A stretch of 64,000 nt of DNA from an uncultured Nitrospirota bacterium (GTDB lineage: Bacteria > Nitrospirota > Thermodesulfovibrionia > Thermodesulfovibrionales > JdFR-85): positions 22,718 to 86,717 of the forward strand of contig CAZEYP010000001.1 of NCBI GenBank assembly GCA_964515925.1. The letters run 5' to 3'. The notes under the pieces are model-generated. The model made no database searches. It saw only the letters and a list, made by a program, of their open reading frames with translations, and was not told the DNA's origin. A program made the translations under genes and the position numbers. Shown here in pieces: positions 10,232-63,458 of the stretch (positions within the stretch are counted from its first letter, which is position 1; every line of letters begins with the position of its first letter).

Positions 10232-10999
10232 ATGTCCTATCTTATAGCCCTTGCTGGAAAAGGTGGAACAGGTAAGACCAGTATAGCAGGACTTACCGTA
10301 AGGTATCTACTTGAGCGAAGAAGGGGGCCTGTACTTGCAGTGGATGCCGACAGTAATGCCTGCCTTAACGAGGCCCTTGGTGTGGATGTTCATACCACTG
10401 TTGGAGCACTCAGGGAGTCTTCCCTTGAAACCATTCGCTCTGGAGCTGACCGCCCAGGGGGGTTGAGCATGGAGGAGCTTTTTGAGTATCAGATAGCCCA
10501 GGCCCTTGTTGAGGCAAAGGGCTTTGACCTTCTTGTGATGGGCAGGCCCGAGGGGCCGGGCTGCTACTGTGCGGCAAATAACATAATCAGAAAGTATACC
10601 GATATCCTGTCAGAGAAGTATCCCTATGTGGTTATAGACAATGAGGCTGGAATGGAGCACCTGAGCCGTCGCACAACCCATAAGGTAAATCTTCTGCTAA
10701 TGGTCAGTGACCCAACGGTCAAGGGGGTGAAGACCGCCAAAAGGATTTCAGACCTGATTGATGAGCTAAAACTTGATATCGAGCGCAGGGTGCTTATAAT
10801 AAACAGGGTTTCCGGTGATGAAAGAGATACTTTAATAAAATATGCTGAAGACCTGGGGCTTGATGTGGCAGGCACGGTGCCAAATGACCCCACTGTGTTT
10901 CAGTTTGACCTTGAAGGAAAACCCATCTTTGAGCTCCCCTCTGAATCAGTGGCTGTTACATCCTTATTTAGTATCTTAGGCGCCCTTGATATAAAGTAA
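10232..10999 (+). CDS. cooC: CODH/ACS nickel-insertion ATPase CooC/AcsF
   Basis: Starts at ATG 10232, 7 nt after AGGAG. It has P-loop GKGGTGKTS and a CxC motif (GPGCYCAAN) and lies next to the acs genes. Confidence 0.85.
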   Translation: MSYLIALAGKGGTGKTSIAGLTVRYLLERRRGPVLAVDADSNACLNEALGVDVHTTVGALRESSLETIRSGADRPGGLSMEELFEYQIAQALVEAKGFDLLVMGRPEGPGCYCAANNIIRKYTDILSEKYPYVVIDNEAGMEHLSRRTTHKVNLLLMVSDPTVKGVKTAKRISDLIDELKLDIERRVLIINRVSGDERDTLIKYAEDLGLDVAGTVPNDPTVFQFDLEGKPIFELPSESVAVTSLFSILGALDIK

Positions 11000-13481: not shown

Positions 13482-13521
13482 ACAAATAACCAATAACAAA
13501 TTTAATCAAATAACAAACTTT
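13482..13521 (+). repeat. G-free CA/A-rich leader word array directly 5' of acsE
   Basis: acaaataaccaataacaaatttaatcaaataacaaacttt is 40 nt with no G (hand count). Confidence 0.7.
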
Positions 13522-15525: not shown

Positions 15526-15580
15526 ATACATCATCATTTACCTACTAAACCAATATACCAATAACCAATTAACTAATTTC
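15526..15580 (+). repeat. G-free CA-rich word array (ACCAATA type) between the acsD stop and the acsC Shine-Dalgarno
   Basis: 55 nt with no G (hand count): ..cctactaaaccaatataccaataaccaattaactaatttc. It is followed by GGAGG at 15581-15585. Confidence 0.85.
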
Positions 15581-16936: not shown

Positions 16937-16938
16937 AA

Positions 16939-17090
16939 CAGGGAGCAGGGCATAGGGGGCAGGGTGTAGTGAGTGTAGAGTTTTGAGTTTTGAGTGTTGA
17001 GTAAAAGCATAACTTAATAATTCAGCACTCAACAATATACATTAAAAACTTTTAATTCCCTGCCCACTACACGCTACACCCTACACCCTA
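16939..17090 (+). repeat. Composite imperfect inverted repeat: G/T-rich arm, short loop, C/A-rich arm
   Basis: The left arm is cagggagcagggcatagggggcagggtgtagtgagtgtagagttttgagttttgagtgttgagt. The right arm is actcaacaatatac...ccctgcccactacacgctacaccctacacccta. It starts 3 nt after the acsC stop. Confidence 0.85.
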
Positions 17091-17242: not shown

Positions 17243-19456
17243 ATGTCAAAGATAATAGCCTCAGCAGCGATGCGTGGCTCTCACAAGGTCTTCAAACAGG
17301 CTGAGGAGCTTTTACAGAAGGTCATAGCAGAAAAAGGCGAGGACTATAAGTTTGAGTTTCCTGATACAGCCTACTATCTGCCGATGATTTATGCAATGAC
17401 GGGTTTTGAGGTTAAGACCCTTGCTGACATGAAAGAGGCATTAAGGATGGCGCAGGACCTGCTGCATGATGAGCCTGATGATAAGATCTGGACACCCTAT
17501 CTGGGTGAGGCGCTTGACAGTGGAATGGCAACGCTTTTTGCCGAGGAGATATGGCTTGCATGCCGTTACATCGAAGGGCTTGAGCCAGAGAAGGACCCAG
17601 AGACTGGCTACGAGTACAATGGTTTTATTACTGATACCATTCAGCGTAACCTTGGTATCCAGCTGGTTGATGGAAGGATGCCAGGTTTTGCAGCCATTAT
17701 TGGTGCTGCACCGGACGAGGAGACAGCATTAAAGATAGTCCGTGAGCTTCAGGAGAAAAACATACTGGTCTTCCTCTCAGGTCAGGCAAAGGACAAAAAC
17801 GGAAAACTCACCAGTTGCACCCGCCAGTTGCTTAATCAGGGGATTGAGCTCGGATGGGATGTCTATGTGGTTCCTCTGGGTACCACCACAGAGCATACCC
17901 TTTATGCCCTTGACTGGGCAATCAGGGCATCCCTTATCTTTGGTGGTCATAAACCAGGGGACTTCAAAAACAACCTTAAATACACAAAGGACCGTGTCTT
18001 TGCCTTTGCCCTTGGTCTTGGTGAGATGGATGACATTAAGTGGGCAACAGGTGCAGGTGCCATCAACATGGGATTTCCTGCAGTCTGTGACACAGAGGTT
18101 CCTGTTATCCATCCAACAGGTGTATGTACCTATGAGGAAGTTGAAAGGGAGCTTGACCACGACAAAATCGTGCAGCGTGCCATTGAGGTAAGGGGGCTTA
18201 AGGTCATAGTTGACAAACCCCCCATACCGATTGCCTATGGTTCAGCCTTTGAGGGTGAGCGTATAAGGAAGGACGACACCTTTATTGAGTTTGGTGGAAA
18301 TCGCACACCTGCATTTGAGTGGTGCAGGATGAGGGAGCTTGATGAGATAGAGGATGGAAAGATCACCATTGTTGGTGAGAACTGGAAGGAGCGTTATGAG
18401 CAAGGAGGGCAGATGCCCCTTGGGATACTCGTAGAGGTGGCTGGAAGGAAGATGCAGCCTGACTTTCTGCCTATTATTGAGCGCAGGCTTCATCATAACA
18501 TAAACGAAGGACAGGGAATCTGGCACATGGGCCAGAGGGATATTAACTGGATAAGGATAAGTAAGAACGCAAAGGCCGAGGGATTTTCTCTTGAGGATAT
18601 TGCAAAGATACATCATGCTATGACTCATAAGAGGTTCAGGGCAATCGTTGACAAGGTTCAGGTAACCCTGTTTACTGATGAAGAAGATGTAATTAAGTGG
18701 CGTGAAGAGGCAAGGGCAGAGTGGAAGGCAAGGGATGAGCGTCTTGCAGCACTTACGGACGACAGTGTGGATACCTTCTACAGTTGTCTGCTCTGCCAGA
18801 GCTTTGCGCCAAGCCATGTTTGTGTGATCACACCCGAGAGGCTTGGCCTCTGTGGTGCTTATAACTGGCTTGACTGTAAGGCTGCCTATGAAATTGATCC
18901 CACAGGTGGTAACCAGCCTGTTCCAAAGGGTGAGCTTGTTGATGCAAGGTATGGCAGATATACAGGTGTGGATGAGTATCTCAAGAAGGCATCAGGCGGT
19001 GCAGTAGAGACCCTGAATCTTTACACAATAATGGAAAACCCCATGACCTCCTGTGGTTGCTTTGAATGTATTGTGGCAATTATTCCAGAGGCAAATGGTG
19101 TAATGATAGTTCAGCGTGGACATACAGGTATGACCCCTATTGGAATGAAGTTTTCCACCCTTGCTGGAACCGTTGGTGGTGGAATGCAGACACCCGGGTT
19201 CATGGGGATTGGTGTTAACTTTATAACCAGTAAGAAATTCCTTGCAGGCGACGGAGGCCTGAAGAGGATAGTCTGGATGACCAAGGCACTGAAGGAAAGG
19301 ATAAAGGAGCAGTTCCAGAAGAGGGCAGAAGAGGAAGGTGTGCCTGATCTTCTTGATAAGATTGCCGACGAGACGATCTGTGAGGATTCAGAAAAACTGC
19401 TTGAGTTCCTGACACAGGTAGGACATCCAGCACTTGAGATGGAGCCGATGATATAA
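17243..19456 (+). CDS. acsB: Acetyl-CoA synthase (A-cluster subunit) AcsB
   Basis: 737 aa with A-cluster cysteines in CLLCQSFAPSHVCVITPERLGLCGA and the Cys-Gly-Cys motif MTSCGCFEC. GAGGAGG lies upstream. Confidence 0.92.
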   Translation: MSKIIASAAMRGSHKVFKQAEELLQKVIAEKGEDYKFEFPDTAYYLPMIYAMTGFEVKTLADMKEALRMAQDLLHDEPDDKIWTPYLGEALDSGMATLFAEEIWLACRYIEGLEPEKDPETGYEYNGFITDTIQRNLGIQLVDGRMPGFAAIIGAAPDEETALKIVRELQEKNILVFLSGQAKDKNGKLTSCTRQLLNQGIELGWDVYVVPLGTTTEHTLYALDWAIRASLIFGGHKPGDFKNNLKYTKDRVFAFALGLGEMDDIKWATGAGAINMGFPAVCDTEVPVIHPTGVCTYEEVERELDHDKIVQRAIEVRGLKVIVDKPPIPIAYGSAFEGERIRKDDTFIEFGGNRTPAFEWCRMRELDEIEDGKITIVGENWKERYEQGGQMPLGILVEVAGRKMQPDFLPIIERRLHHNINEGQGIWHMGQRDINWIRISKNAKAEGFSLEDIAKIHHAMTHKRFRAIVDKVQVTLFTDEEDVIKWREEARAEWKARDERLAALTDDSVDTFYSCLLCQSFAPSHVCVITPERLGLCGAYNWLDCKAAYEIDPTGGNQPVPKGELVDARYGRYTGVDEYLKKASGGAVETLNLYTIMENPMTSCGCFECIVAIIPEANGVMIVQRGHTGMTPIGMKFSTLAGTVGGGMQTPGFMGIGVNFITSKKFLAGDGGLKRIVWMTKALKERIKEQFQKRAEEEGVPDLLDKIADETICEDSEKLLEFLTQVGHPALEMEPMI

Positions 19457-19460
19457 AACA

Positions 19461-19538
19461 GGGTTTAGGGAGTAGCGTATAGGGTGTATAATTGAACGCA
19501 TAAACCCTAAAACACAACTAACGCTATAAACGCAAAAC
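19461..19538 (+). repeat. Word-repeat spacer with a short hairpin between acsB and cooS
   Basis: The sequence is cagggtttagggagtagcgtatagggtgtat aattgaacgc ataaaccctaaaacacaactaacgctataaacgc. tagggtgtat pairs with ataaacccta (9 of 10). Confidence 0.7.
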
Positions 19539-21546: not shown

Positions 21547-21581
21547 AAGATTTCAGATTTATGATTTGAGATTTTAGATTT
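21547..21581 (+). repeat. Tandem heptad array NAGATTT (5 units)
   Basis: aagattt cagattt atgattt gagattt tagattt runs straight into the SD GGAGG of the next gene. Confidence 0.85.
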
Positions 21582-22133: not shown

Positions 22134-24473
22134 ATGGCTAAGCTTAAGAGCATTGAGGAACTGAAAAACCTTAGACTTTTATTAAAAGAGGAGACCTTTC
22201 CAGAAGGTCGTGAGCGTATAAGGGCCTGCACAGGCACGGCCTGTATGGCTTCTGGTGCAAATAAGGTGATAGAAAGGATTGAGGAGAAGGCAAAGGAAAA
22301 AGGTCTTGACATACAGGTGATTCGTACTGGCTGTCAGGGGCTATGCCAGAAGGGGCCTATTATGAAGATAGAGCCCTATGGATACTTTTATCAGAAGGTA
22401 AAGGTAGATGATGCAGAGGCGGTAGTCAGTAATACCCTTTCTGCAGGCTATCCGGTCAGGCACCTCCTGAATCGCGACTCCTTTTTTGTAGAGCCCCATG
22501 AATTAATGGATGAGCTACCCTTTTATAAAAAACAGCTTCGTATAGCCCTTCGTAACAACGGAAGGATTGACCCACTTAACATATACCACTATATCGCTGT
22601 AGGTGGATACACAGGACTGGAGAAGGCATTAAGCAGCATGACCCCTGACCAGGTCCTTGATGAAGTAGACAGGGCAAACCTCCGTGGTCGGGGAGGTGCA
22701 GGATTCCCAGCAGGTAAGAAGTGGCGTCATACAAAAAGGGCTCCAGGGGATTTAAAGTTTGTAATTGCAAACGGTGACGAAGGTGACCCTGGTGCGTTCA
22801 TGGACCGCTCAATCATGGAGGGCGACCCTCACAGTCTTATAGAGGGAATGCTTCTTTGTGCCTACGCAATTGGTGCAGAGTATGGCTTTATATATGTTCG
22901 TCATGAGTATCCACTGGCTGTTAAGAATCTCAGGCATGCTATCAAACAGGCAGAGGACCTGGGAATTCTTGGTGAAAACATACTTGGTAGTGGATTTAAT
23001 TTTTATCTTGATGTCCGCGAGGGTGCAGGTGCCTTTGTATGCGGAGAGTCAACAGCTCTGGTTGCCTCAATTGAAGGAGACAGAGGCTTTCCAAGGCCAA
23101 GGCCACCACGGCTCAGTGAGCCTGGTGGTGGGCTGTGGGGTGTGCCTTCAAATCTGAATAACATTGAGACCTATGCCTGTGTGCCGCCAATTATTGAAAA
23201 AGGCGCAGACTGGTTCCGCTCTATAGGAACCGAGACATCCCCTGGCACCAAGGTCTTTGCACTCACTGGTAAGGTTAAAAACACAGGACTGGTAGAGGTG
23301 CCAATGGGTATTACGCTCAGGGAGATTATATTTGACATTGGCGGTGGGATCCTTGGGGATAAGAAGTTCAAGGCTGTCCAGACAGGCGGCCCATCAGGTG
23401 GCTGTCTGCCCGAGGAGTATCTTGACCTGCCTGTTGATTTTGACTCATTAAGGAAGGTTGGCTCCATGATGGGCTCTGGTGGTATGGTGGTGATGGACGA
23501 GGATACATGTATGGTGGATGTGGCAAAGTACTTTCTTTCATTTACACAGGCAGAATCCTGTGGTAAATGTCCACCCTGCCGTCTCGGCACATACCAGATG
23601 CTTCAGATTCTTGAGAGGATCACCAATGGTCAGGGCGAACCTGGCGACATTGAAAGGCTTATCAAGTATGGCAAGCTCACGCAGGAGGGCTCACTCTGCG
23701 GACTTGGTCAGAGTGCACCAAATCCTGTGCTGAGCACGATTAAGTATTTCAGAGAGGAGTACGAAGAGCATATCTATGATAAGTATTGCAGGGCAAAGGT
23801 ATGTAAGGGAATGGGTGTATTCTCCATAGACCTTACACAGTGCATCCGTTGTGGTCTATGCAAGGAGGCCTGTGCCTTTGATGCAGTTAAGGAGACACGG
23901 GATGCTTTCATAATAGACAGGGATTACTGCACAAAGTGTAAGGCCTGTTACATGGTCTGTCCTGTGGATGCCGTGAAGATATGGAAGGAAAGACATCTCA
24001 AGATGGTTGAGGCATTGAAGATTCCTCCTGAAAAGATAGAAACCATTGAAAGGAGAGTAAAGATGAAACTCAAAGATGTGCTTGAGGCAAAACCTCGGGA
24101 GGTCTTCACTGTAAGAAAGGACAAGAGCGTTTCCTATGCAGTGAAGTTCATGAGTGAGCATAACATTGGTGCACTGCTTGTGGTGGATGAAAAGGATAAA
24201 CTGGTTGGAATGTTTACTGAAAGGGATGTGCTTCATTGCACTGCCCGTGGTGTTGACCTTGACTCAGAGCCAGTTGAAAATGTGATGAGTAAGGAGCTTA
24301 TTACATTCTCTCCAGATGATGATATTGCTGTTGCTGTGCAGGTTATTGCAGATAAGAAGAAGAGACACCTGCCCATTGTTGAGGGTGACAGGATCGTTGG
24401 CCTGGTAAATTATCGTGATGTGGTCAGTTATCTGCTGCCAGAGGTATTCTATCTGTCAGAGGCACTTTATTGA
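22134..24473 (+). CDS. NuoF/HydB-like NAD(P)H-binding FMN/Fe-S subunit with an N-terminal [2Fe-2S] domain, C-terminal 2x[4Fe-4S] and a tandem CBS-domain pair
   Basis: 779 aa with GLRGRGGAGFP (FMN/NADH site), ESCGKCPPCRLGT (N3-type cluster), ferredoxin motifs CIRCGLCKEAC and CTKCKACYMVCP, and a final ~135 aa (about 24063-24470) that forms a CBS pair (..HNIGALLVVDEKDKLVGMFTERDV.. / ..RHLPIVEGDRIVGLVNYRDV..). Confidence 0.85.
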   Translation: MAKLKSIEELKNLRLLLKEETFPEGRERIRACTGTACMASGANKVIERIEEKAKEKGLDIQVIRTGCQGLCQKGPIMKIEPYGYFYQKVKVDDAEAVVSNTLSAGYPVRHLLNRDSFFVEPHELMDELPFYKKQLRIALRNNGRIDPLNIYHYIAVGGYTGLEKALSSMTPDQVLDEVDRANLRGRGGAGFPAGKKWRHTKRAPGDLKFVIANGDEGDPGAFMDRSIMEGDPHSLIEGMLLCAYAIGAEYGFIYVRHEYPLAVKNLRHAIKQAEDLGILGENILGSGFNFYLDVREGAGAFVCGESTALVASIEGDRGFPRPRPPRLSEPGGGLWGVPSNLNNIETYACVPPIIEKGADWFRSIGTETSPGTKVFALTGKVKNTGLVEVPMGITLREIIFDIGGGILGDKKFKAVQTGGPSGGCLPEEYLDLPVDFDSLRKVGSMMGSGGMVVMDEDTCMVDVAKYFLSFTQAESCGKCPPCRLGTYQMLQILERITNGQGEPGDIERLIKYGKLTQEGSLCGLGQSAPNPVLSTIKYFREEYEEHIYDKYCRAKVCKGMGVFSIDLTQCIRCGLCKEACAFDAVKETRDAFIIDRDYCTKCKACYMVCPVDAVKIWKERHLKMVEALKIPPEKIETIERRVKMKLKDVLEAKPREVFTVRKDKSVSYAVKFMSEHNIGALLVVDEKDKLVGMFTERDVLHCTARGVDLDSEPVENVMSKELITFSPDDDIAVAVQVIADKKKRHLPIVEGDRIVGLVNYRDVVSYLLPEVFYLSEALY

Positions 24474-24618
24474 TTTTAGATTTGAGATTTAAGATTTCAG
24501 ATTTAAAAGCTCTGTAAGCGCTGTGTTCTCTGTGGTTAAAATAGAAGAAGTGCATAAGTTTGGAAAATTGGGATTTGGAATTTGTTTAGAAATTAGGGTT
24601 TAGAAATTAGAATTTTTA
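24474..24618 (+). repeat. Composite spacer element: NAGATTT heptads, then NNCTCTGTG nonamers, then GGAATTT/AGAAATT words
   Basis: The sequence is tttagatttgagatttaagatttcagatttaaaagctctgtaagcgctgtgttctctgtggtt...ggaaaattgggatttggaatttgtttagaaattagggtttagaaattagaattttt. It is homologous to 59829-59967 and partly to 48466-48563. Confidence 0.85.
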
Positions 24619-25259: not shown

Positions 25260-25300
25260 TCTATTAACTAATAAACCAATATACCAATAACAACTTTTTA
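25260..25300 (+). repeat. G-free CA-rich word array 5' of the SD
   Basis: tctattaactaataaaccaatataccaataacaacttttta is 41 nt with no G. GGAGG follows at 25301. Confidence 0.8.
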
Positions 25301-27595: not shown

Positions 27596-27602
27596 GCTGT
27601 AC

Positions 27603-27669
27603 GGAAGTCTGAAGTCGGAAATCAGAATATGTTATCTGACCTCCGACCTCTGACCTCTGTCCTCTGTCC
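27603..27669 (-). repeat. Inter-tRNA spacer hairpin built from heptads (CTGACCT array versus GAAGTC/GAAATC array)
   Basis: 27603-27626 pairs with 27635-27658. There are 18 Watson-Crick pairs on either strand, plus 4 further G:U pairs only in the minus-strand (tRNA-sense) RNA. Confidence 0.8.
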
Positions 27670-27745
27670 TGGTGAGCCGCCGGGGATTCGAACCCCGCAC
27701 ACCCGCCTTAAAAGGGCGGTGCTCTGCCGACTGAGCTAGCGGCCC
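27670..27745 (-). tRNA. tRNA-Lys (anticodon UUU), CCA encoded
   Basis: The reverse complement is GGGCCGCTAGCTCAGTCGGCAGAGCACCGCCCTTTTAAGGCGGGTGTGCGGGGTTCGAATCCCCGGCGGCTCACCA. The anticodon loop is CTTTTAA. Confidence 0.92.
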
Positions 27746-34222: not shown

Positions 34223-35310
34223 CCATTATATCTGCAATAGTACTTCTGGGGGTGTTAATATTTGTTCATGAGTTGGGCCATTTTATCGTGGCAAAGCTCT
34301 CAGGGGTGAAGGTGCTCAGGTTTTCCCTTGGCTTTGGCCCGAAGGTGGTGGGAAAACAGTTCGGTGAAACAGAGTACCTGCTTTCGGCAATACCGCTTGG
34401 TGGGTATGTAAAGATGCTTGGTGAGGAGCCTGACGAGGAGCTTCCTGCAGAGGAGGCAGAAAGGGCATTTAACCGTCAGCCCATTAGAAAGAGGGCATTG
34501 ATAGTTTTTGCTGGTCCCTTTTTTAATGTCCTGCTAACCTACATCATATTTACAGCAGTTCTGGCAGTTGGACTGCCAATAAATATCCCGGTTGTTAAGC
34601 AGTTAAAACCAAGTATTGATAAAGTGGAGGAGGGTTATCCTGCGCAGAAGGCCGGACTGAAGGCAGGTGACATTGTCAAAGAGATAGATGGCCGTCCGGT
34701 TGACACCTGGTTTGACCTGGTCAGTATTGTCTCAAAAAGCCCCGGGAAAGAGCTTGAGTTTATGGTGTTAAGGGGGGAAAGGCTGATAAAGATAAAGATA
34801 ACTCCCCGAAGGGTTGAAAAAAAGGGCCCAGACGGCAAAAGAATTGTTATTGGAAGGATAGGAGTCAGGAAAACAGGAGATGGATTTTTTGAGAGTATCC
34901 AGGCAAAGGGGGCTTTAGAGGCACCTTTTAAGGGTGCCATGGCCACCTACAGGATGGGCTTTTTTATAGTGGACTCAATCAGGATGCTTGTGACAGGAGA
35001 GGTATCATTTAAAAACCTTGGTGGGCCTGTCACTATTATCAAGGAATCAGGAAAGGCGGCTTCAGCAGGCATACTTGCCTATGTTATGTTTATGGCCCTT
35101 TTGAGTGTAAACCTTGCGGTGCTGAATCTTCTGCCTATACCGATTCTTGATGGTGGACATCTGCTTCTGTTTGCAGTGGAGGCAATGAAGGGTGAGCCAC
35201 TTAATGAAGAAATCGTGATTATAGTGCACAAAATAGGCTATGCGATACTTATAATACTTATGGGTTTTGCCCTTTACAACGACATCGTAAGGATATTTAC
35301 CGATTCTTAA
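34219..35310 (+). CDS. rseP: RIP site-2 zinc metalloprotease RseP
   Basis: 363 aa with HELGHF, a PDZ segment, and a C-terminal NLLPIPILDGGH. Confidence 0.9.
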   Translation: MTIISAIVLLGVLIFVHELGHFIVAKLSGVKVLRFSLGFGPKVVGKQFGETEYLLSAIPLGGYVKMLGEEPDEELPAEEAERAFNRQPIRKRALIVFAGPFFNVLLTYIIFTAVLAVGLPINIPVVKQLKPSIDKVEEGYPAQKAGLKAGDIVKEIDGRPVDTWFDLVSIVSKSPGKELEFMVLRGERLIKIKITPRRVEKKGPDGKRIVIGRIGVRKTGDGFFESIQAKGALEAPFKGAMATYRMGFFIVDSIRMLVTGEVSFKNLGGPVTIIKESGKAASAGILAYVMFMALLSVNLAVLNLLPIPILDGGHLLLFAVEAMKGEPLNEEIVIIVHKIGYAILIILMGFALYNDIVRIFTDS

Positions 35311-35316
35311 CCCATG

Positions 35317-35350
35317 ACCAATACACAAATAACCAATATACCAACATCAC
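35317..35350 (+). repeat. G-free CA-rich word array directly abutting the next start codon
   Basis: accaatacacaaataaccaatataccaacatcac. There is no SD between it and the ATG at 35351. Confidence 0.75.
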
Positions 35351-42089: not shown

Positions 42090-42092
42090 GAA

Positions 42093-42240
42093 GGTGAATT
42101 GGTATATTGGTGTAGTGGTGTAGTGGTGAAGGGGTGAAACAGGCTTCAGGCTATAGGCTTAAGGTTATGGGCAATGGATTAAGATGCGAATATCAAAAAA
42201 GCCAGATTAATAATTTAGTAATCCAATAATCTAATAACTT
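42093..42240 (+). repeat. Octamer word arrays: G/T-rich arm GTGNANTG, spacer, C/A-rich arm
   Basis: ggtgaattggtatattggtgtagtggtgtagtggtgaaggggtgaaac ... attaataatttagtaatccaataatctaataactt lies between the NuoF-like gene and vapB. Confidence 0.75.
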
Positions 42241-42292
42241 AAAGAATATATTTTTATTGAATCAGGAATACTTTTAAGGCTAAAATAGAAGC

Positions 42293-42514
42293 ATGAAAAC
42301 CACAGTTGATATTCCAGATGATGAGCTCAAAGAATTACTGAAAAACACCAGAGCAAAGACCAAGAAAGAGGCAATTCTTCAGGCAGTAAGGGAGTACAAT
42401 CGCAGGCAGAAACTCAAAAGGCTTGCAGATATGCTGGGTACCTTTGAGGATATAATCACACTGGAAGAACTCCAGAAGTTCAGGATGGACCATAAATGGC
42501 CCGACAGGATGTAG
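42293..42514 (+). CDS. vapB: Type II antitoxin, VapB family
   Basis: 73 aa starting MKTTVDIPDDELKELLKNTRAKTKKEAILQAVREY.. It overlaps the PIN gene by 19 nt. Confidence 0.8.
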   Translation: MKTTVDIPDDELKELLKNTRAKTKKEAILQAVREYNRRQKLKRLADMLGTFEDIITLEELQKFRMDHKWPDRM

Positions 42515-42885
42515 TGCTTGTAGATACTTCCGTATGGATTGAGGCATTGAGGGTAAAAGGTGATGCTGAGACAAAAGAAAGACTCAGGCAGTTGATATTG
42601 GAGGACAGGGCTGTTTGGTGTGACCTGGTGGTGCTTGAACTACTCAGCGGAATGAAGGGTGAGAAGGAGAAAAAGAAGATTAGGGAATACATAGAAGAGA
42701 TAAGGAGTCTTGAGATTAACAGCAAGGTCTGGCAAAGGGCTAAAGGGTTAGTTGTTTCCTGCAGGCAAAAGGGATTTACGGTGCCTGTAACAGACATTAT
42801 AATAGCAGCCTGTGGCCTGAGCCACGGGGTGCCCTTAATGTATAAAGACCGACACTTCGACATCATACTGAGGGAGGTTCTATGA
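42496..42885 (+). CDS. vapC: Type II toxin VapC (PIN-domain ribonuclease)
   Basis: 129 aa with PIN acidic residues in VLVDTSVWIE, ..LVVLELL.., VTDIIIAA and KDRHFD. Its stop TGA (42883-42885) overlaps the fdhA ATG (42882-42884). Confidence 0.85.
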   Translation: MARQDVVLVDTSVWIEALRVKGDAETKERLRQLILEDRAVWCDLVVLELLSGMKGEKEKKKIREYIEEIRSLEINSKVWQRAKGLVVSCRQKGFTVPVTDIIIAACGLSHGVPLMYKDRHFDIILREVL

Positions 42886-45560
42886 TTACACTTATGATAG
42901 ATGGTAAGTATGTTGAGGTTCCTGAGGGGACGACCATACTTCAGGCTGCCCGTGAGGCTGACATCTACATCCCCACCCTCTGCGACGACCCACGACTGGA
43001 GCCCTACGGTGCATGCAGGCTCTGCCTTGTTCAGGTAAAGGGTATGCCAAGGCCTGTTACTGCCTGCACCACACCTGTAAGTGAGGGGATGGAGGTTCAG
43101 ACCAGCAATGAACAGATAGAGCGTATACGTAGAACCATAGTGGAGCTACTTCTAAGCGACCATCCCAATGATTGCATGGTCTGTGAAAAGGCAGGTGACT
43201 GCACCCTTCAGGAGCTTGCCTATTTTTACGACCTCAGAAAGAACCGATTCTGGGGTGAACGCCGTCAGTACACAAAGCGGGATGCCAATCCCTTTATTGA
43301 GAGGGATATGGAAAAGTGTGTGCTCTGTGGTAAGTGTGTGCGGGTCTGTGAGGAGATTCAGGGTGTGGCTGCCATAGACATAGCCTACAGGGGATTCAAG
43401 GCAAAGGTATGCCCTCCCTTTGAAAAGGACCTTAACTGTGAGTTCTGCGGTCAGTGCGTAAGCGTCTGCCCCACAGGTGCACTTATCGGCAAGCAGTCCC
43501 TTGGAAAAGGAAGGCAGAAGGACATAAAGCGAGTTGATACCGTATGTCCCTATTGTGGTTGTGGCTGTAACATAACCCTTCATGTAAGCCGCAATGAGAT
43601 AATCAGGGTGACCTCTGATCCAGACAGCCATAACGAGGGCTGGCTCTGCGTAAAGGGCAGGTTTGGCTTCAGGTTCGTAAACAGCCCTGACCGCCTGAAA
43701 AAACCCCTTATCAGGCGTAACGGTGAGTTTGAGGAGGTCTCCTGGGATGTGGCCCTTGAGTATATAGCAGAGAGGCTTAAAAAGATAAAGAAAGAACATG
43801 GTGCAGATGCCATCGCCGGGCTCAGCTCTGCCCGTTGCACCAATGAAGAAAACTACCTCTTCCAGAAGTTTATGCGTGCCGCAATTGGCACCAACAATGT
43901 TGACCACTGTGCCCGTTACTGACACTCTGCAACGGTGGCCGGTCTGGCCACAGTGTTCGGCTCAGGAGCCATGACCAACTCCATTGCAGAGATTGAGGAC
44001 AACGACCTTCTGTTTGTCATTGGCTCTAACACAAAGGAAAACCATCCCATAGTGGCACTTAGGATGATAAAGGCAGTGCGCAGGGGGGCTAAACTCATCG
44101 TGGCTGACCCAAGGAAGGTTCCCCTTGTCAGGTTTGCCCATCTGTGGCTTCAGCACCGCCCTGGCACGGATGTGGCACTTCTTAACAGCATGATGCATGT
44201 GATTGTAAAAGAGGACCTTATAGACAGGGACTTCATAATAAACATGACCGAGGGCTTTGAAAAGGAGTTCCTTGAAAACCTCGAGCAGTATACCCCTGAG
44301 GTTGGTGAGAAGCTAACTGGTGTTCCAAAGGAAAAGATAGTGGAGGCTGCAAGGCTTTATGGCTCTGCCGAGAGGGCTGGCATTTACTACACCATGGGCA
44401 TTACCCAGCACAGCCACGGCTCTGACAATGTCTTCAGCATTGCAAACCTGGCACTTATGACAGGCAATTTAGGGAAACCCTCCTCAGGTGTTAACCCTCT
44501 CAGGGGGCAGAACAATGTGCAGGGCTCAACCGATATGGGCTGCTCACCAGACAGTTATCCAGGCTACCAGAAGGTCCATCTGCCTGCTGTAAAAGAGAAG
44601 TTTGAAAGGCTCTGGGGTGTAAAGCTCTCTGACAGGCCAGGACTTACTGCCTCGGAGATGCTCTTTGAGGCTGAGGCAGGAAAATTAAGGGCCCTTTACA
44701 TAATGGGTGAAAACCCGGTGCTCAGTGACCCTGATGTGGGGCATACGGTGAGGGCATTAAAATCCCTTGACTTCCTGGTGGTTCAGGACATATTCATGAC
44801 CGAGACAGCAGAGCTTGCCGATGTGGTGCTTCCAGCTGCAAGCTTTGCTGAAAAGGACGGCACCTTTACAAACACAGAGCGAAGGGTTCAGCGGGTAAGA
44901 AAGGCACTAAACCCACCAGGGGATGCCAGAGAGGACTCCTGGATTATCACCGAGTTAAGCAAACGAATGGGCTATGAGATGAACTATGCAAATATATCTG
45001 AGGTGTTCAGGGAGATAGGACAGGCCTGGCCAGCAGTTGCAGGGATAACCTACTCAAGGCTTGAGCACGGAGGGCTCCAGTGGCCCTGTCCAACGGTGGA
45101 CCACCCTGGAACTCCATATCTTTTTAAGGGTGGTTTCCCGAGAGGAAAGGGTAGATTTACCATAGTGAAATACCGCGACCCCATGGAGATGGTAAGTGAT
45201 GAATTCCCCTTTATCCTGACAACAGGCCGTCAGCTGTTTCAGTACCATACAGGCACCATGACAAGAAGGGTTCCACCTATAAACGAGGTTTCCCCTGGAC
45301 CCTATGTGGAGATAAATCCTGATGACGCCCTAACGCTTGGCATTGAGGATGAGCAGAAGGTAAGGGTTACATCAAAACGGGGTAGCATAGAGCTTAATGC
45401 AAGGCTTACTGACAGGGTGGAAAGGGGTCTTGTGTTTATCCCCTTTCACTTTAAAGAGGCAGCAGCCAATGTGCTTACAGACAGCAGGGCACTTGACCCA
45501 CTCTGTAAGATTCCTGAGTTTAAAGTCTGTGCTGTGAATGTGGAGAAGATAGTTAATTGA
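42882..45560 (+). CDS. fdhA: Selenocysteine-containing formate dehydrogenase alpha subunit with a NuoG-like N-terminal Fe-S extension
   Basis: ORFs 42882..43922 and 43935..45560 are one frame joined across TGA 43920-43922. The context ..[30 protein letters not shown] is the conserved FdhA/FdhF Sec/Cys active-site motif. It has N-terminal [2Fe-2S] and 4x[4Fe-4S] motifs plus MopB and MopB_CT domains. Confidence 0.92.
43923..43955 (+). promoter_or_regulatory. SECIS element of fdhA
   Basis: cact ctgcaacg gtggcc ggtct ggccac agtg has a 6-bp upper stem with apical loop GGUCU (like the E. coli fdhF loop) plus a 4-bp lower stem. It starts immediately 3' of the UGA. Confidence 0.75.
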
Positions 45561-45640
45561 ATTAATAGCGTTGGTAGTGTTGATTGGAGTTGGGTTAGGG
45601 TGTTTTTACTACTCCCTACACGCTACACCCTGAACCCTAA
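45561..45640 (+). repeat. Dispersed composite repeat, copy M (GCGTT words, conserved core, CNCCCTA heptads)
   Basis: attaatagcgttggtagtgttgattggagttgggttagggtgtttttactactccctacacgctacaccctgaaccctaa aligns with 57440-57520 and with the reverse complement of 50830-50910. Confidence 0.85.
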
Positions 45641-45690: not shown

Positions 45691-46149
45691 ATGGTTCAGA
45701 TCAATGATTTAAAAGAGCAGATATTATTGAAAGAACTAAACGACGATGAACTGAACATAATTGCTGAGAAGGTTCAGGAGCAAAGCTTTCCAATGGGGAA
45801 GTTAATCTTTATGGAGGGCGAAGAGACCAAGGGTATTTATCTTATAAAAAAGGGTAAGGTAGAGATATCAAAGACCACCCCTGATGGCTGGAAGCAAACA
45901 CTGGCTGTGTTTACTGATGGACATTTCTTTGGTGAGCTTTCGGTTATAGAAGACAAGAAAGAGCACGGTGCAATTGCCACAGCTATTGAGGATACCGATG
46001 CCTTTTTAATTAAAAAGGATGACCTGAAAAGTCTTGAAAAAAGCAACCCTGAGCTGATGTATAAGATTATGAAGACCATTGCCCGTGTGGCAAGCCACAA
46101 TGTGCATACGATGAATGAAAAACTGGTGAAGTTGTTGATTAGTTATTAG
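45691..46149 (+). CDS. Cyclic-nucleotide-binding domain protein (no DNA-binding domain)
   Basis: 152 aa with a CAP_ED beta-roll (GEETKGIYLIKKGKVEI, FFGELSVI). Confidence 0.75.
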   Translation: MVQINDLKEQILLKELNDDELNIIAEKVQEQSFPMGKLIFMEGEETKGIYLIKKGKVEISKTTPDGWKQTLAVFTDGHFFGELSVIEDKKEHGAIATAIEDTDAFLIKKDDLKSLEKSNPELMYKIMKTIARVASHNVHTMNEKLVKLLISY

Positions 46150-46180
46150 TGTAATGGTGTATTGGTGTAGTGGTATAGTG
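46149..46180 (+). repeat. Left (G/T-rich octamer) arm of the stem enclosing the four-helix-bundle ORF
   Basis: gtgtaatggtgtattggtgtagtggtatagtg pairs with 46598-46629 (27 WC plus 2 G:U of 32, hand-aligned). Confidence 0.8.
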
Positions 46181-46219
46181 GTAAATTGATGATAGGATGT
46201 TTTAGATAAATAATATATA

Positions 46220-46591
46220 ATGGGATTGGATGAGCTTGAGATATATGTTCTGGCAAGGCAGTTGAGCAGAGTTTTCTGGAAAGTATATGAAGGAATGGAC
46301 AATAGCATTAAATACAACATCGGGACACAGGCCCTTAGGTCTATTGATTCAATAGGAGCAAACATTGCTGAAGGATACGGTAGATATCATTATCTTGACT
46401 GTGTAAGGTTTTACTATAATGCCAGAGGATCTCTATGGGAAAGTTTACACTGGATAGAACTCCTATACGAAAGGGGTCTTTTAGAAGAACAGGTTTACAC
46501 ACAACTTACAGATGACCTTAACATACTCGTAAAAAAACTTAACAGCTTTATAAATTCAATAAAAAACAAAAAGGAAAACCTTAATAATTAA
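46220..46591 (+). CDS. Four-helix-bundle protein (23S rRNA intervening-sequence protein family, PF05635/TIGR02436 type)
   Basis: 123 aa. ..LRSIDSIGANIAEGYGRYHYLDCVRFYYNARGSLWESLHWIELL.. matches the family signature (SIxxNIAEGxGR ... ARGSxxE). Confidence 0.85.
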   Translation: MGLDELEIYVLARQLSRVFWKVYEGMDNSIKYNIGTQALRSIDSIGANIAEGYGRYHYLDCVRFYYNARGSLWESLHWIELLYERGLLEEQVYTQLTDDLNILVKKLNSFINSIKNKKENLNN

Positions 46592-46678
46592 AAAATACAA
46601 TACACTATTACACCAATACACCAATACACAAATATACCAATATACCAATATATTATTTTACTAATACACCAACATTAA
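46575..46678 (+). repeat. Right (C/A-rich octamer AYACCAAT) arm; a 104-nt stretch with no G
   Basis: ..caatacactattacaccaatacaccaatacacaaatataccaatataccaatatattattttactaatacaccaacattaa runs up to the AGGAGG of fhs. There is no G from 46575 to 46678 (hand count). Confidence 0.85.
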
Positions 46679-46688
46679 GGAGGTCATT

Positions 46689-48452
46689 ATGCCACTTGAT
46701 CCAACCAAGCATGCAGACTGGGAGATTGCCGAGGCAGCTGAAAAGAACATGAAGACTGTTTATCAGCTTGCCGAGGAGATGGGGCTTGAAAAGGAGGAGC
46801 TTCTGCCCCACGGTCATTATGTTGCAAAGGTTGACTACAAGAGCATTCTTAATCGTCTTTCAAGCCGTCCTGACGGAAAGTACATTGATGTAACCGCCAT
46901 CACACCCACCCCACTTGGTGAGGGTAAGTCAACCACCACAATCGGACTCCTTCAGGGTATGGGCAAAAGGGGAAAGAATGTTATAGCTGCCATCAGGCAG
47001 CCCTCTGGTGGCCCAACAATGAACATAAAGGGTTCTGCTGCAGGCGGAGGACTTTCTCAGTGCATTCCGCTTACACCCTTTTCACTGGGACTTACAGGAG
47101 ACATCAACGCAATAATGAATGCCCACAACCTTGCAATGGTTGCCCTTACTGCAAGGATGCAGCATGAGTTTAACTACAACGACGAGCAGCTTGCAAAGCG
47201 TAACCTCAAAAGACTAAACATTGACCCCCGCAATGTCCAGATGGGCTGGATAATGGACTTCTGTGCCCAGGCCCTAAGGAAGATAATCATCGGTATCGGT
47301 GGAAAGATGGATGGCTTTATGATGGAAAGCCGTTTCGACATCGCCGTTTCCTCTGAGGTGATGGCCATACTGGCAGTTGCAAAGGACCTTAAGGACTTCC
47401 GTGAGAGGATGGGCAGGATCGTTGTTGCCTACGACAAGCAGGGTAACCCCATCACCACCGAAGACCTCGAGGTTGCAGGTGCAATGACCGCCTGGATGGT
47501 TGAGGCACTGAATCCAAACCTCATGCAGTCCATCGAGGGTCAGCCCGTTCTGGTTCATGCAGGTCCATTTGCAAACATTGCTATCGGGCAGTCCTCAATC
47601 ATAGCCGACAGGGTGGGGCTTAAGCTTGCCGATTACCACATCACCGAAAGTGGTTTTGGTGCAGACATAGGGTTTGAGAAGTTCTGGAACCTCAAGTGCC
47701 GTTTTTCAGGACTGAAACCCCATGCTGCAGTTATCGTGGCAACCATAAGGGCACTTAAGTGTCACGGTGGTGCACCTGTTCCAGTGCCGGGAAGACCAAT
47801 TCCTGAGGAATACTCTGAGGAGAATGTGGAATGGGTGGAAAAGGGTTGTGAAAACCTGGTCCATCACATAAACACCGTAAGAAGGGCAGGCATTAACCCG
47901 GTGGTATGTATTAATGCCTTCTACACTGATACAAAGGATGAGATAGAAACAGTAAGAAGGATAGCCGAGCAGGCAGGAGCCCGTGTTGCCGTCAGTGAGC
48001 ACTGGCTCAAAGGCGGCGAGGGTGCACTTGAGCTTGCCGATGCAGTGATAGATGCCTGCGAAGACAGCAACAACTTTAAATTCCTCTATGAACTTAATGT
48101 TCCAGTCAGGAACAGGATTGAGATGATAGCAGAGCATGTCTATGGTGCAGATGGTGTGGAGTATACACCTCAGGCACTTCAGAAACTCAAGGCAATCGAG
48201 CAGGATTCAGAGCTCAGCCAGCTTGGCACCTGTATGGTCAAGACCCACCTCAGTCTTTCTGATAATCCAAGCATCAAGGGTGTTCCAAAGGGCTGGAAGC
48301 TCTTTGTAAGGGATGTGCTTATTTACAAGGGAGCAGGTTTCGTGGTTCCTGTGGCAGGTGACATCAAGTTGATGCCAGGTACATCCTCTGACCCGGCATA
48401 CAGAAGGATTGATGTGGATACAGAGACAGGTAAGGTAAAGGGCTTGTTCTAA
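46689..48452 (+). CDS. fhs: Formate--tetrahydrofolate ligase
   Basis: 587 aa with [15 protein letters not shown] (P-loop) and overall FTHFS family similarity. Confidence 0.93.
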
Positions 48453-48465
48453 GGATTGAGTAATA

Positions 48466-48563
48466 GGGAGCGGGGATTTCGGATTTATGATTTTAGATTT
48501 TAGATTTCAGATTTAGATACTCTGTGTTCTCTGTGGTTTGTATCTTCAATGTCCCTGCTCCCC
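48466..48563 (+). repeat. Composite spacer element (NAGATTT heptads plus CTCTGTG nonamers) bracketed by gggagcgggga / tccctgctccc
   Basis: The sequence is gggagcggggatttcggatttatgattttagattttagatttcagatttagatactctgtgttctctgtggtttgtatcttcaatgtccctgctcccc. The outer 11 nt are complementary apart from one G:T. Confidence 0.8.
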
Positions 48564-50793: not shown

Positions 50794-51020
50794 AAATCCG
50801 AAATACGAAATCCTAATTTCTAAACATTACAGGGTGTAGGGTGTAGCGTGTAGGGAGTAACAAAAACACCCCAACCAAACCCCAATCAACGCTACCAACG
50901 CTATTAACGCAAAGAACGCAATTAACTCTATAAGCGCAAGCAACGCAAATAACTCAAAGAACGCAAAGAACCCGATAAACTCGATAAACGCAAAGAACGC
51001 AACTTAACGCAATCAACGCT
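50794..51020 (-). repeat. Large composite repeat inside the mla operon (sense = minus): about 14 nonamers NNNNGCGTT, conserved core, CNCCCTA heptads, NNGATTT heptads
   Basis: Reverse-complement reading gives gattgcgtt aagttgcgtt ctttgcgtt tatcgagtt ... aatagcgtt ggtagcgtt gattggggtttggttggggtgtttttgttactccctacacgctacaccctacaccctg ... agaaatt aggattt cgtattt cggattt. The core 50830-50910 matches 57440-57520 at 75 of 81 positions, in inverted orientation. Confidence 0.9.
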
Positions 51021-57361: not shown

Positions 57362-57558
57362 TTGATTGCGTTAATAGCGTTTATTGCGTTCTTTGCGTTA
57401 ATCGGGATGATTGCGTTTATTGGGTTAATAGTGTTAATTGCGTTAATAGCGTTGGTAGCGTTGATTAGGGTTTGGATGGGGTGTTTTTGTTGCTCCCTAC
57501 TCCCTACTCCCTACACCCTGTCTTTTTTACTCCCTACACGCTACCCCCTACACCCTAA
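57362..57558 (+). repeat. Large composite repeat in the nrdJ leader: about 12 nonamers NNNNGCGTT, conserved core, CTCCCTA/CACCCTA heptads
   Basis: The sequence is gattgcgtt aatagcgtt tattgcgtt ctttgcgtt ... aatagcgtt ggtagcgtt gattagggtttggatggggtgtttttgttgctccctactccctactccctacaccctg ... ctccctacacgctaccccctacacccta. It ends 13 nt before the GGAGG of nrdJ. Confidence 0.9.
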
Positions 57559-59828: not shown

Positions 59829-59967
59829 CAGGGAGTAGGAATTTTAGATTTCAGATTTATGATTTTAGATTTAAAAACTCTGTGAACTCTGTGCACTCTG
59901 CGGTTTTGTAGTTAATTTGAAAAATTGGAATTTGGAATTTGTTCAGGATTTAAAAATTTCAGATTTA
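59829..59967 (+). repeat. Composite spacer element homologous to 24474-24618
   Basis: The sequence is cagggagtaggaattttagatttcagatttatgattttagatttaaaaactctgtgaactctgtgcactctgcggtt...ttgaaaaattggaatttggaatttgttcaggatttaaaaatttcagatttat. Confidence 0.85.
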
Positions 59968-62622: not shown

Positions 62623-63354
62623 ATGCAGGAGAGACTACAAAAGATACTGGCAAGGGCAGGCATTGCCTCAAGGCGTAAGGCTGAGGAGCTTATCAGGGAA
62701 GGCCGTGTTACTGTAAACGGTCAGATTGCGACCCTCGGAATGAAGGCAGACCTTGAAACTGACTATATAAAGGTTGACGGCAAGCTTGTTCTGAAACCCG
62801 AACCCAAGACCTATATAATGCTTAACAAACCAAAGGGAGTTTTAACTACCCTTGAAGACCCTGAAGGCCGTCCAGCCATAAAGGAGCTTATAAAGGGTGT
62901 AAGGTTCAGGGTATATCCGGTTGGAAGACTGGATTTCTACACCGAGGGACTGCTGTTGTTGACAAATGATGGTGAGCTTGCCTATAGAATTATTCATCCT
63001 TCCTTTAAGGTTGACAAGACATATCTTGTTAAGGTCAAGGGCATTATTGAAGAAAAGGACCTTGAAAAGCTACGCAGGGGGATAAGGCTTGAAGATGGCA
63101 TAACTGCTCCGGCAAGGATAAAGAGAATAAGGATGCCAAAAACTGAAAAAAACTCCTGGCTTGAGGTGGTGATTCATGAAGGCAAAAAGCGACAGATCCG
63201 CAGGATGTTTCAACGGGTAGGGCATCCAGTGTTAAAGCTGAAACGGACAAAAATTGACGGCTTGAGCCTTGGGGATTTACCTGCGGGCAAGTGGCGTTAT
63301 CTTACCAACGAGGAGATAAAAAGGCTTAAGAAAAGTGTTAAAATAGACAATTAA
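62623..63354 (+). CDS. Pseudouridine synthase, RsuA/RluB family (S4 domain plus catalytic domain)
   Basis: 243 aa with the N-terminal S4 RLQKILARAGIASRRKAEELIREGRVTVNG and the catalytic motif PVGRLDFYTEGLLLLTNDGEL. Confidence 0.88.
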   Translation: MQERLQKILARAGIASRRKAEELIREGRVTVNGQIATLGMKADLETDYIKVDGKLVLKPEPKTYIMLNKPKGVLTTLEDPEGRPAIKELIKGVRFRVYPVGRLDFYTEGLLLLTNDGELAYRIIHPSFKVDKTYLVKVKGIIEEKDLEKLRRGIRLEDGITAPARIKRIRMPKTEKNSWLEVVIHEGKKRQIRRMFQRVGHPVLKLKRTKIDGLSLGDLPAGKWRYLTNEEIKRLKKSVKIDN

Positions 63355-63406
63355 TTTTAGATTTTAGATTTCAGATTTATGATTTCAGATTTTAGATTTA
63401 TGATTT
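63355..63406 (+). repeat. Tandem heptad array NAGATTT (about 7 units)
   Basis: tttagatttt agattt cagattt atgattt cagattt tagattt atgattt starts immediately after the stop codon. Confidence 0.9.
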
Positions 63407-63458
63407 AAGAGTAAGTGCTAAAATTGTTAATAAAGTTTAAGGTAGGAGGTTAGAGCTA

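Follow-up and report, generated by a model that had tools for sequence, protein, structure and literature searches.

What is a gene of the 23S rRNA intervening sequence (IVS) protein family doing between two metabolic genes, and why should a long stem enclose it there? The question is raised by a 64-kb stretch of DNA from an uncultured Nitrospirota bacterium (contig CAZEYP010000001.1; hereafter the window, with all coordinates counted from its position 1), in which an open reading frame (ORF) for a four-helix-bundle (4HB) protein lies between a gene for a cyclic-nucleotide-binding domain protein (the cNMP gene) and fhs, the gene for formate-tetrahydrofolate ligase. A preliminary description of the locus assigned the ORF to the IVS-protein family, placed it in the loop of a 32-bp stem and proposed that the whole was a portable cassette, able to occupy mRNA and tRNA spacers as well as rRNA. 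Here, we examine this locus together with its relatives in other genomes. On balance, we consider it to be an IVS-type gene cassette resident in an operon spacer, composed of a GT-rich array of 8-nt words, an Avd-like 4HB gene and a complementary CA-rich array, the RNA duplex of which would act as an RNase III-type processing or insulating element.

In the 23S rRNA of Coxiella, the IVS is closed by a terminal stem of 28 bp, has a family ORF in its loop and is cut by RNase III midway along this stem (PMC4990558). Members of the PF05635 family have also been found wedged in cas operons (PMC3936711) and in rRNA insertions of the candidate phyla radiation (bioRxiv 2024.02.27.582315). The combination of an IVS ORF with a stem is already known (PMC4990558); its packaging by word arrays in an operon spacer is an apparent new variant. 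We found no literature that links the PF05635 family to flanking word arrays, although the searchable literature is incomplete and this is no proof of novelty.

Results

The locus and its stem

The cassette and its two neighbours are arranged as follows.

45691..46149, + strand: cNMP gene, the upstream neighbour (152 aa; PF00027, E 1.6e-19)
46149..46188, + strand: 5' arm, about five GT-rich octamers with the class I core ATTGG (GTGTAATG GTGTATTG GTGTAGTG GTATAGTG GTAAATTG)
46189..46219, + strand: AT-rich linker from the 5' arm to the start codon, without a Shine-Dalgarno motif (from the sequence)
46220..46591, + strand: 4HB gene, PF05635/TIGR02436, Avd-like (123 aa)
46575..46678, + strand: G-free tract of 104 nt, spanning the ORF end and the 3' array as far as the fhs ribosome-binding site (from the sequence)
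46598..46672, + strand: 3' arm, about nine CA-rich octamers with the class I core CCAAT (CAATACAC and variants)
46677..46683, + strand: fhs Shine-Dalgarno motif, AAGGAGG (from the sequence)
46689..48452, + strand: fhs, formate-tetrahydrofolate ligase, the downstream neighbour (PF01268, E 2e-235)

Both arms are tandem arrays of period 8. The letters first quoted for the stem, at 46149-46180 and 46598-46629, proved exact, and on re-alignment by hand they give 27 Watson-Crick and 2 G:U pairs with 3 mismatches over 32 positions. The layout that had been read from them was equally borne out: the first base of the stem is the last base of the cNMP stop codon (TAG, 46147-46149), inspection of the ORFs finds 46220-46591 as the only one enclosed, and the 104 nt without a G do run up to the fhs Shine-Dalgarno motif. 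The final codons of the cNMP gene, AGT TAT TAG, already resemble an array word, and at the other end the 3' array stops 5 nt before the fhs Shine-Dalgarno motif and 17 nt before the fhs start codon.

The arms pair better than chance. Their duplex reaches -44.2 kcal/mol, as compared with -31.7 +/- 3.8 kcal/mol for dinucleotide shuffles, none of 300 of which was as good (z about -3.3). This excess is real but moderate, because the GT-rich and CA-rich composition of the arms by itself gives a strong background. A fold of the 551-nt region against shuffled controls, the check that the preliminary description had itself proposed, yields a z of -2.7 and has the stem in the minimum free energy and centroid structures alike. 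In the partition function, the mean probability that a base of the 5' arm is paired with the 3' array is 0.84, the pairing being spread over several registers that involve the part of the 3' arm at about 46598-46642. The core of the stem measures 32 nt and can be extended to about 45 nt, beyond the roughly 20 bp or more that characterizes the ORF-enclosing stems of IVSs. For a 16-nt word pattern, the window has 15 occurrences where 0.49 would be expected, and among the 57 genes of the window the 4HB gene ranks first for complementarity of its flanks (z -4.0; median 0.19).

Rfam has no hit at the locus, nor does it recognize rRNA anywhere in the window; the cassette lies between protein-coding genes and not in helix 25 or 45 of a 23S rRNA. 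Promoter and terminator scans of the locus gave nothing better than shuffled sequence, a weak sigma-70-like match at 46186-46214 included. No reverse transcriptase, transposase or recombinase is present among the genes called within +/-10 kb, no target-site duplication is recognizable around the cassette, PADLOC returns no match, and a tblastn search of the 64 kb returned no second copy of the 4HB gene.

A conserved four-helix-bundle protein

Membership of the 23S rRNA IVS-protein family was confirmed by 84.8 bits against PF05635 (cut-off 33.8; E 6e-24) and 90 bits against TIGR02436 (cut-off 24; E 1e-25). The motif RxxxSxxxNxxE that marks the PF05635 family (PMC3936711) is present as R40, S44, N48 and E51, the exception being that the glycine given three residues before the arginine in that motif is absent here. 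The residues invariant in the family alignment are retained (G54-R55, H57-Y58, N67, R69, W73, H77-W78 and R85). The AlphaFold model has four helices (pLDDT 91.9), and its best structural matches in Foldseek are 2GSC and 2RLD, followed by the Avd protein of the diversity-generating retroelements (DGRs); the TM scores are 0.85-0.94 for 2GSC (rmsd 1.4-1.7) and 0.74-0.84 for the Avd structures 4DWL and 8UB7. Both of the solved relatives, 2GSC and 2RLD, have five chains per entry. With a dN/dS of 0.12-0.16 for its ORF, the 4HB protein at this site is under purifying selection.

Matched word arrays bracket the family across phyla

The family was compared at 80 loci kept from the matches listed in a scan of reference genomes, a sample of relatives 36-65% identical that does not include the source genome and that spans Nitrospirota, Campylobacterota, Desulfobacterota, Bacteroidota, Patescibacteria, Gammaproteobacteria, Verrucomicrobiota and others. 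Flank pairing was taken as the duplex of the 120 nt upstream with the 120 nt downstream of a gene; 73 loci were usable, and 97 neighbour genes of the same loci served as controls. The flanks of the 4HB genes have a median z of -2.83, with 44% of the loci below -3, against -0.07 and 1% for the neighbour genes (Mann-Whitney p=3e-17). Short-period arrays, as called by TRF, lie upstream in 47 of the 73 loci (64%), downstream in 42 (58%) and on both sides in 31; the corresponding numbers for the 97 controls are 12, 12 and 4. None of the 20 family loci checked with Rfam has an rRNA context. The stem-plus-ORF layout recurs outside rRNA as had been suggested, and it is frequent in the family without being universal.

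The two arms are fitted to one another. Array periods are 7, 8, 10 or 11 only and mostly equal in both arms, and when downstream flanks were swapped between loci the cognate flank was the best partner in 18 of 72 cases (1 expected) and among the top three in 27. The arrays stand close to the ORF, at a median of 9 nt before the ATG, where a Shine-Dalgarno motif would fit in few copies, and 3 nt after the stop. Among words of period 7 or 8, the upstream arm carries ATT[GA]G in 17 of 28 (1.8 expected) and the downstream arm C[CT]AAT in 18 of 25 (1.5 expected), and these cores are almost never found on the opposite arm; words of period 10 or 11 have the cores GAAAT upstream and ATTTC downstream. 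Arm similarity between loci, judged by comparison of the consensus words, follows protein similarity, with an odds ratio (OR) of 9.3 within phyla and 2.1 between them. Bracketing by lineage-specific, mutually matched words with conserved cores is the typical packaging of this family across phyla.

The orientation of the gene is also constrained. In 62 of 67 loci the gene runs in the direction of its upstream neighbour (p=5e-7 against a baseline of 0.66), and an antisense position relative to both neighbours is seen in just 1 of 66 copies. In 26 of 32 loci, the hairpins have the form 5'-GT...CA-3', with the GT-rich arm upstream. We rejected this bias as a polarity relative to the ORF: because such an inverted repeat reads identically on either strand, the bias is a property of the hairpin.

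ORF-less arrays are frequent around the family genes (137 in 358 kb of family loci, against 4 after shuffling), and they share words with the local 4HB arms in 34% of cases and with the arms of other loci in 7% (OR 6.8). Two loci are unusual in the extent of their arrays: in L127 (2750-3410) more than 140 nt of arrays with a 24-nt super-unit lie on each side of the 4HB gene, and in L015 (3364-3500) an additional, complete ORF-less word-array hairpin directly follows it.

An old cassette at a junction with turnover

The cassette is old at this site. The same contig region is found in five metagenome assemblies that are identical save for one 8-nt unit: L002 (at about its position 10410; window 46631-46638) lacks exactly one unit of the 3' array, a slippage polymorphism. 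Beyond these, the gene order cNMP-4HB-fhs is conserved in L006, L008, L010, L012 and L124, the 4HB proteins of the syntenic relatives being 89%, 80%, 78% and 61-65% identical. Arm complementarity is at a z of about -3 in the window and L008 and marginal in L010. In L010 (4883-5000) and L011, one extra nucleotide following codon 6 shortens the 4HB ORF at its N-terminus, and this frameshift may represent incipient decay.

A metagenome scan with the cNMP protein also located 23 orthologous fdhA-cNMP-fhs junctions without the 4HB gene. Some are bare spacers of 20-31 nt; one, in the close relative L092, holds a CA-rich, CA-only remnant; and others hold ORF-less word-array hairpins built of other words (L094, z -3.9; L114, z -2.8; L112; L103). 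The 5' arm of L094 is identical to that of the window at 19 of 24 positions, and its 3' arm has been re-matched to it. In the trees, the 4HB-bearing lineages fall into two clades, which empty and ORF-less relatives separate, and the junction is for that reason one of turnover; the trees are compatible with either one ancient gain followed by losses or repeated gains at the same site. As to the portability claimed for the cassette, it is reasonable at the scale of the family, because the genes occur in many unrelated contexts and are gained and lost at the cNMP-fhs junction; it does not extend to a recent arrival here, where synteny holds in at least five lineages and down to 61-65% identity.

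Word arrays and ORF-less hairpins in the window

The arms are members of genome-wide dispersed word families and not unique DNA. The 64-kb window contains 27 short-period arrays with words of 7-9 nt, as compared with 2 in 50 kb of Escherichia coli; about half of its spacers hold arrays, and several of these form hairpins without an ORF, for example at 16937-17085 (z -4.5). A solo relative of the 5' arm lies at 42094-42138 (86% identical), and solo relatives of the 3' arm lie at 35317-35347 (94%) and 25267-25289 (91%). The window has no full second copy of the 4HB cassette, only these solo-arm relatives, whereas ORF-less modules reach four to six or more copies at 73-94% identity.

One such ORF-less module, which we call module A, consists of ATTGCGTTA-type 9-mers and a GGGTGT.../...CTACACCC hairpin. 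Its copies, at least four in number (57440-57545, 50821-50910, 45562-45638 and 19455-19533), are 73-90% identical, the non-repetitive loop included; two of them are inverted and 6.3 kb apart, and one is situated directly upstream of the cNMP gene. A second module, of GATTTYA heptamers often followed by CTCTGTG words, has at least six copies downstream of six different genes (220-278, 21549-21581, 24466-24537, 48472-48540, 59841-59906 and 63354-63410). Solo CA-rich arrays of the AACCAATA type, which have no GT-rich partner and resemble the cassette's 3' arm as well as the CA-only remnant of L092, lie directly upstream of ribosome-binding sites at 15548-15578, 25266-25290, 35308-35344 and 13482-13517.

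The spacer between two tRNA genes at 27596-27672 (- strand) is filled exactly by a near-perfect, ORF-less word-array hairpin (-36.5 kcal/mol, z -7.8). The proposal that the cassette also occupies tRNA spacers did not hold for the window, since this hairpin has no ORF and belongs to the larger population of ORF-less word-array hairpins.

Further upstream, a VapB/VapC(PIN) toxin-antitoxin pair is wedged between a NuoF-like gene and fdhA (42090-42885). Two arrays, one GT-rich (42093-42172) and one CA-rich (42219-42240), come before this insert, which is missing in L006 and L010. The two formate dehydrogenase ORFs at 42882-45560 are one gene with an in-frame TGA (43920-43922) in the context HCARY-U-HSATVAG, the classic selenocysteine position of FdhA.

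Discussion

A gene cassette probably made tolerable by its stem

In the mechanism that we favour, the cassette would lack a promoter of its own and would depend on transcripts that read through from fdhA and the cNMP gene. After synthesis of the 3' array, the arms would zip together in any of several registers to give an imperfect RNA duplex of about 32-45 bp, which would package the insert as a self-contained hairpin domain. By analogy with the rRNA-borne relatives, this duplex would most likely be cut by RNase III, and cleavage would yield an upstream mRNA, an ORF-bearing loop RNA and, for fhs, an mRNA whose leader is CA-rich and G-free. Because such a cut would separate these three RNAs, the stem would mainly be what makes the insert tolerable inside a transcription unit; a dedicated regulatory role of the stem for fhs is less likely. 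Three points suggest a role at the RNA level: the gene keeps strictly to the sense orientation behind a co-directional neighbour, no promoter signal emerged, and the rRNA relatives are excised by RNase III according to published work.

Several observations weigh against this interpretation. The complementarity may be maintained at the DNA level and not by selection on the sense RNA, since G:U pairs are not in excess: at the 38 loci whose arms are clear, the transition mismatches comprise 34 that are G:U in the sense RNA and 33 that are G:U only in the antisense RNA (A.C in the sense). The earlier argument from the G:U pairs of this stem, that they exist in the plus RNA alone, carries no weight in view of these numbers. 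A strong stem is not strictly required at this site, as the arms of the closest orthologue, L006, pair no better than shuffled sequence (z -0.1). About half of the family copies have no clear arms, among them the sole plasmid copy (Pseudanabaena), which has no arrays. The conserved word cores and the words that track protein clades suggest a sequence-specific recognition that a purely structural model leaves unexplained. The family is basic (median net charge +5, pI 9.4), and the protein of the window is acidic (net charge -2, pI 5.7); together with P0001 and P0002 of the same cNMP-fhs lineage it has a pI of 5.7-6.8, near-universal lysines having been replaced and the core motif residues kept, while P0004 of this lineage has retained a pI of 9.1 at a net charge reduced to +3. 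Finally, while the structural and evolutionary parts of the interpretation are observations, transcription, the duplex in vivo and its cleavage by RNase III are what we infer.

Among the closest known systems is the IVS of 23S rRNA (Leptospira, Coxiella burnetii; S23p/PF05635 ORF). There, as here, the family protein is encoded in the loop of a long terminal stem in the sense orientation of the host transcript, and ORF-less versions occur at the same sites. RNase III excision has been demonstrated for the rRNA cases (PMC4990558) and would apply to our cassette by analogy, as would the RNase III entry site that had been proposed to uncouple fhs from the upstream transcript. The differences are that the rRNA IVSs sit in helix 25 or 45, whereas the host here is an mRNA spacer between the cNMP gene and fhs; that the arms here are tandem 8-nt word arrays that recur elsewhere in the genome; and that the ORF is under purifying selection, whereas that of the Coxiella IVS is decaying.

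Dispersed intergenic inverted repeats that are co-transcribed, and whose hairpins affect the stability or processing of mRNA, are familiar from the repetitive extragenic palindromes and bacterial interspersed mosaic elements (REP/BIME) and from the Correia-type elements; Correia elements are substrates of RNase III. These are palindromes of unique sequence without an ORF, whereas here the arms are tandem word arrays and one class has a conserved gene in its loop.

A possible protein reader of the words

A first alternative is that the arrays are protein-binding sites: an Avd-like pentamer would recognize evenly spaced words (ATTGG/CCAAT) on RNA or DNA, much as the ring-shaped TRAP or HutP acts on repeated triplets. 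The arrays of the protein's own gene would then mediate autoregulation, the ORF-less arrays would constitute a regulon (translation, processing or stability at operon junctions), and the complementarity of the arms would be secondary or would compete with protein binding. We regard this as possible but doubtful. It would give a meaning to the arm-specificity of the cores across phyla (17/28 and 18/25 words), to the tracking of protein clades by the words (OR 9.3 and 2.1) and to the words that ORF-less arrays share with the local 4HB genes (OR 6.8), and it would suit the basic character of the family (pI 9.4). Arrays have about 4-5 units (median 4.4, an estimate limited by the threshold of array detection), and the solved relatives crystallize with five chains. 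Avd itself binds RNA in the DGR ribonucleoprotein (8UB7; bioRxiv 2023.10.23.563531), and a binder has been postulated for heptamer repeats adjoining start codons (MacGregor 2015; PMC4679880). However, the specific complementarity of the two arms would be left unexplained, the window's own protein has a net charge of -2, and several unrelated word families in one genome (GATTTYA, GGGTGTAG, AACGCAAAG) face a single 4HB gene in 64 kb.

The parallel with Avd is itself an incomplete one. The two proteins share a fold and a superfamily (TM 0.74-0.84 for 4DWL and 8UB7; PMC10053308). As a basic pentamer, Avd binds structured RNA as well as the DGR reverse transcriptase, and in the DGR RNA the template, too, is bracketed by complementary segments (bioRxiv 2023.10.23.563531). 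But the protein of the window is acidic and shares only about 12% sequence identity with Avd; and a DGR has a reverse transcriptase and a pair of template and variable repeats (TR/VR), neither of which is found within +/-10 kb here, where the flanks are word arrays and not TR/Spacer elements.

A possible repeat element at the DNA level

The second alternative, which overlaps in part with the first and to which we give a similarly limited credence, is a DNA-level repeat element of the REP or miniature inverted-repeat transposable element (MITE) kind. A dispersed element family would have the arms as its termini, the ORF-bearing copies as its autonomous or founder form and the ORF-less hairpins as its derivatives; templated correction at the DNA level, from one arm to the other, would preserve their complementarity, any RNA hairpin being a by-product. 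This would accommodate the absence of a wobble bias toward the sense RNA (34 vs 33), the dispersal of ORF-less modules at 73-94% identity with their non-repetitive loops, the solo copies of both arms elsewhere in the window, the turnover at a single orthologous junction (bare, with a remnant, with an ORF-less hairpin or with the ORF), the unit-slippage polymorphism between strains, and the wedging of family genes inside cas operons and rRNA genes (PMC3936711; bioRxiv 2024.02.27.582315). Against this, the surroundings of the cassette (+/-10 kb) have no transposase, recombinase or reverse transcriptase, nor does it show an evident target-site duplication; it has remained stable here over a deep divergence, the subfamily is nearly absent from plasmids and phages in a database scan, and co-orientation in the sense of the upstream gene would not be expected unless selection filters the insertions.

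The last alternative, that the ORF is incidental, arises because the spacers of the window are full of word arrays, many of them as ORF-less hairpins (27 arrays over the 64 kb, compared with 2 over 50 kb of E. coli, and about half of the spacers occupied), such that the 4HB gene could lie between two of them by chance, but it is highly improbable and largely refuted by the neighbour-gene controls, for 4HB genes are bracketed and their same-locus neighbours are not (p=3e-17) in genomes of unrelated phyla, cognate arms match specifically in the swap test, and in the window the 4HB gene is first of 57 for flank complementarity.

What the cassette may mean for the family

The arrays of the window have a counterpart in the short tandemly repeated repetitive (STRR) and TAACTGA-type heptamer direct repeats of Cyanobacteria, Beggiatoaceae and Bacteroidetes, which are intergenic, numerous in certain genomes, and often end just upstream of a start codon (PMC4679880). 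In the window the tandem intergenic words of 7-8 nt are likewise abundant and near start codons, and its solo CA-rich arrays before start codons (15548, 25266, 35308) fit the description. The STRR/TAACTGA repeats were described as direct repeats without a partner array or gene, whereas here complementary inverted pairs bracket a protein family.

The IVS-type inserts, in our interpretation, are tolerated in ordinary operons, in this case between formate dehydrogenase genes and fhs. That the word arrays and the 4HB gene travel together also calls for caution on the part of annotators and of those who search for CRISPR arrays. More tentatively, short-word intergenic repeats, previously unconnected, may form a widespread system with the array-bracketed PF05635 genes as its ORF-bearing members. 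In this system an Avd-like pentamer would be the sequence-specific partner of the words on RNA or DNA, binding their evenly spaced units, and would be responsible either for how the words spread and are maintained or for the regulation of processing and translation at operon junctions. We know of no function that has been assigned to the IVS-encoded 4HB protein since 1993, nor, to our knowledge, has a partner or an origin been found for the short tandem heptamer and octamer repeats of intergenic regions. These two old puzzles may be one, and both are testable because the family is packaged across phyla in complementary word arrays with conserved cores that recur without an ORF in the same genomes. 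If this is true, the rRNA IVS would be only one niche of a STRR/TAACTGA-like word system with the cores ATTGG/CCAAT and GAAAT/ATTTC.

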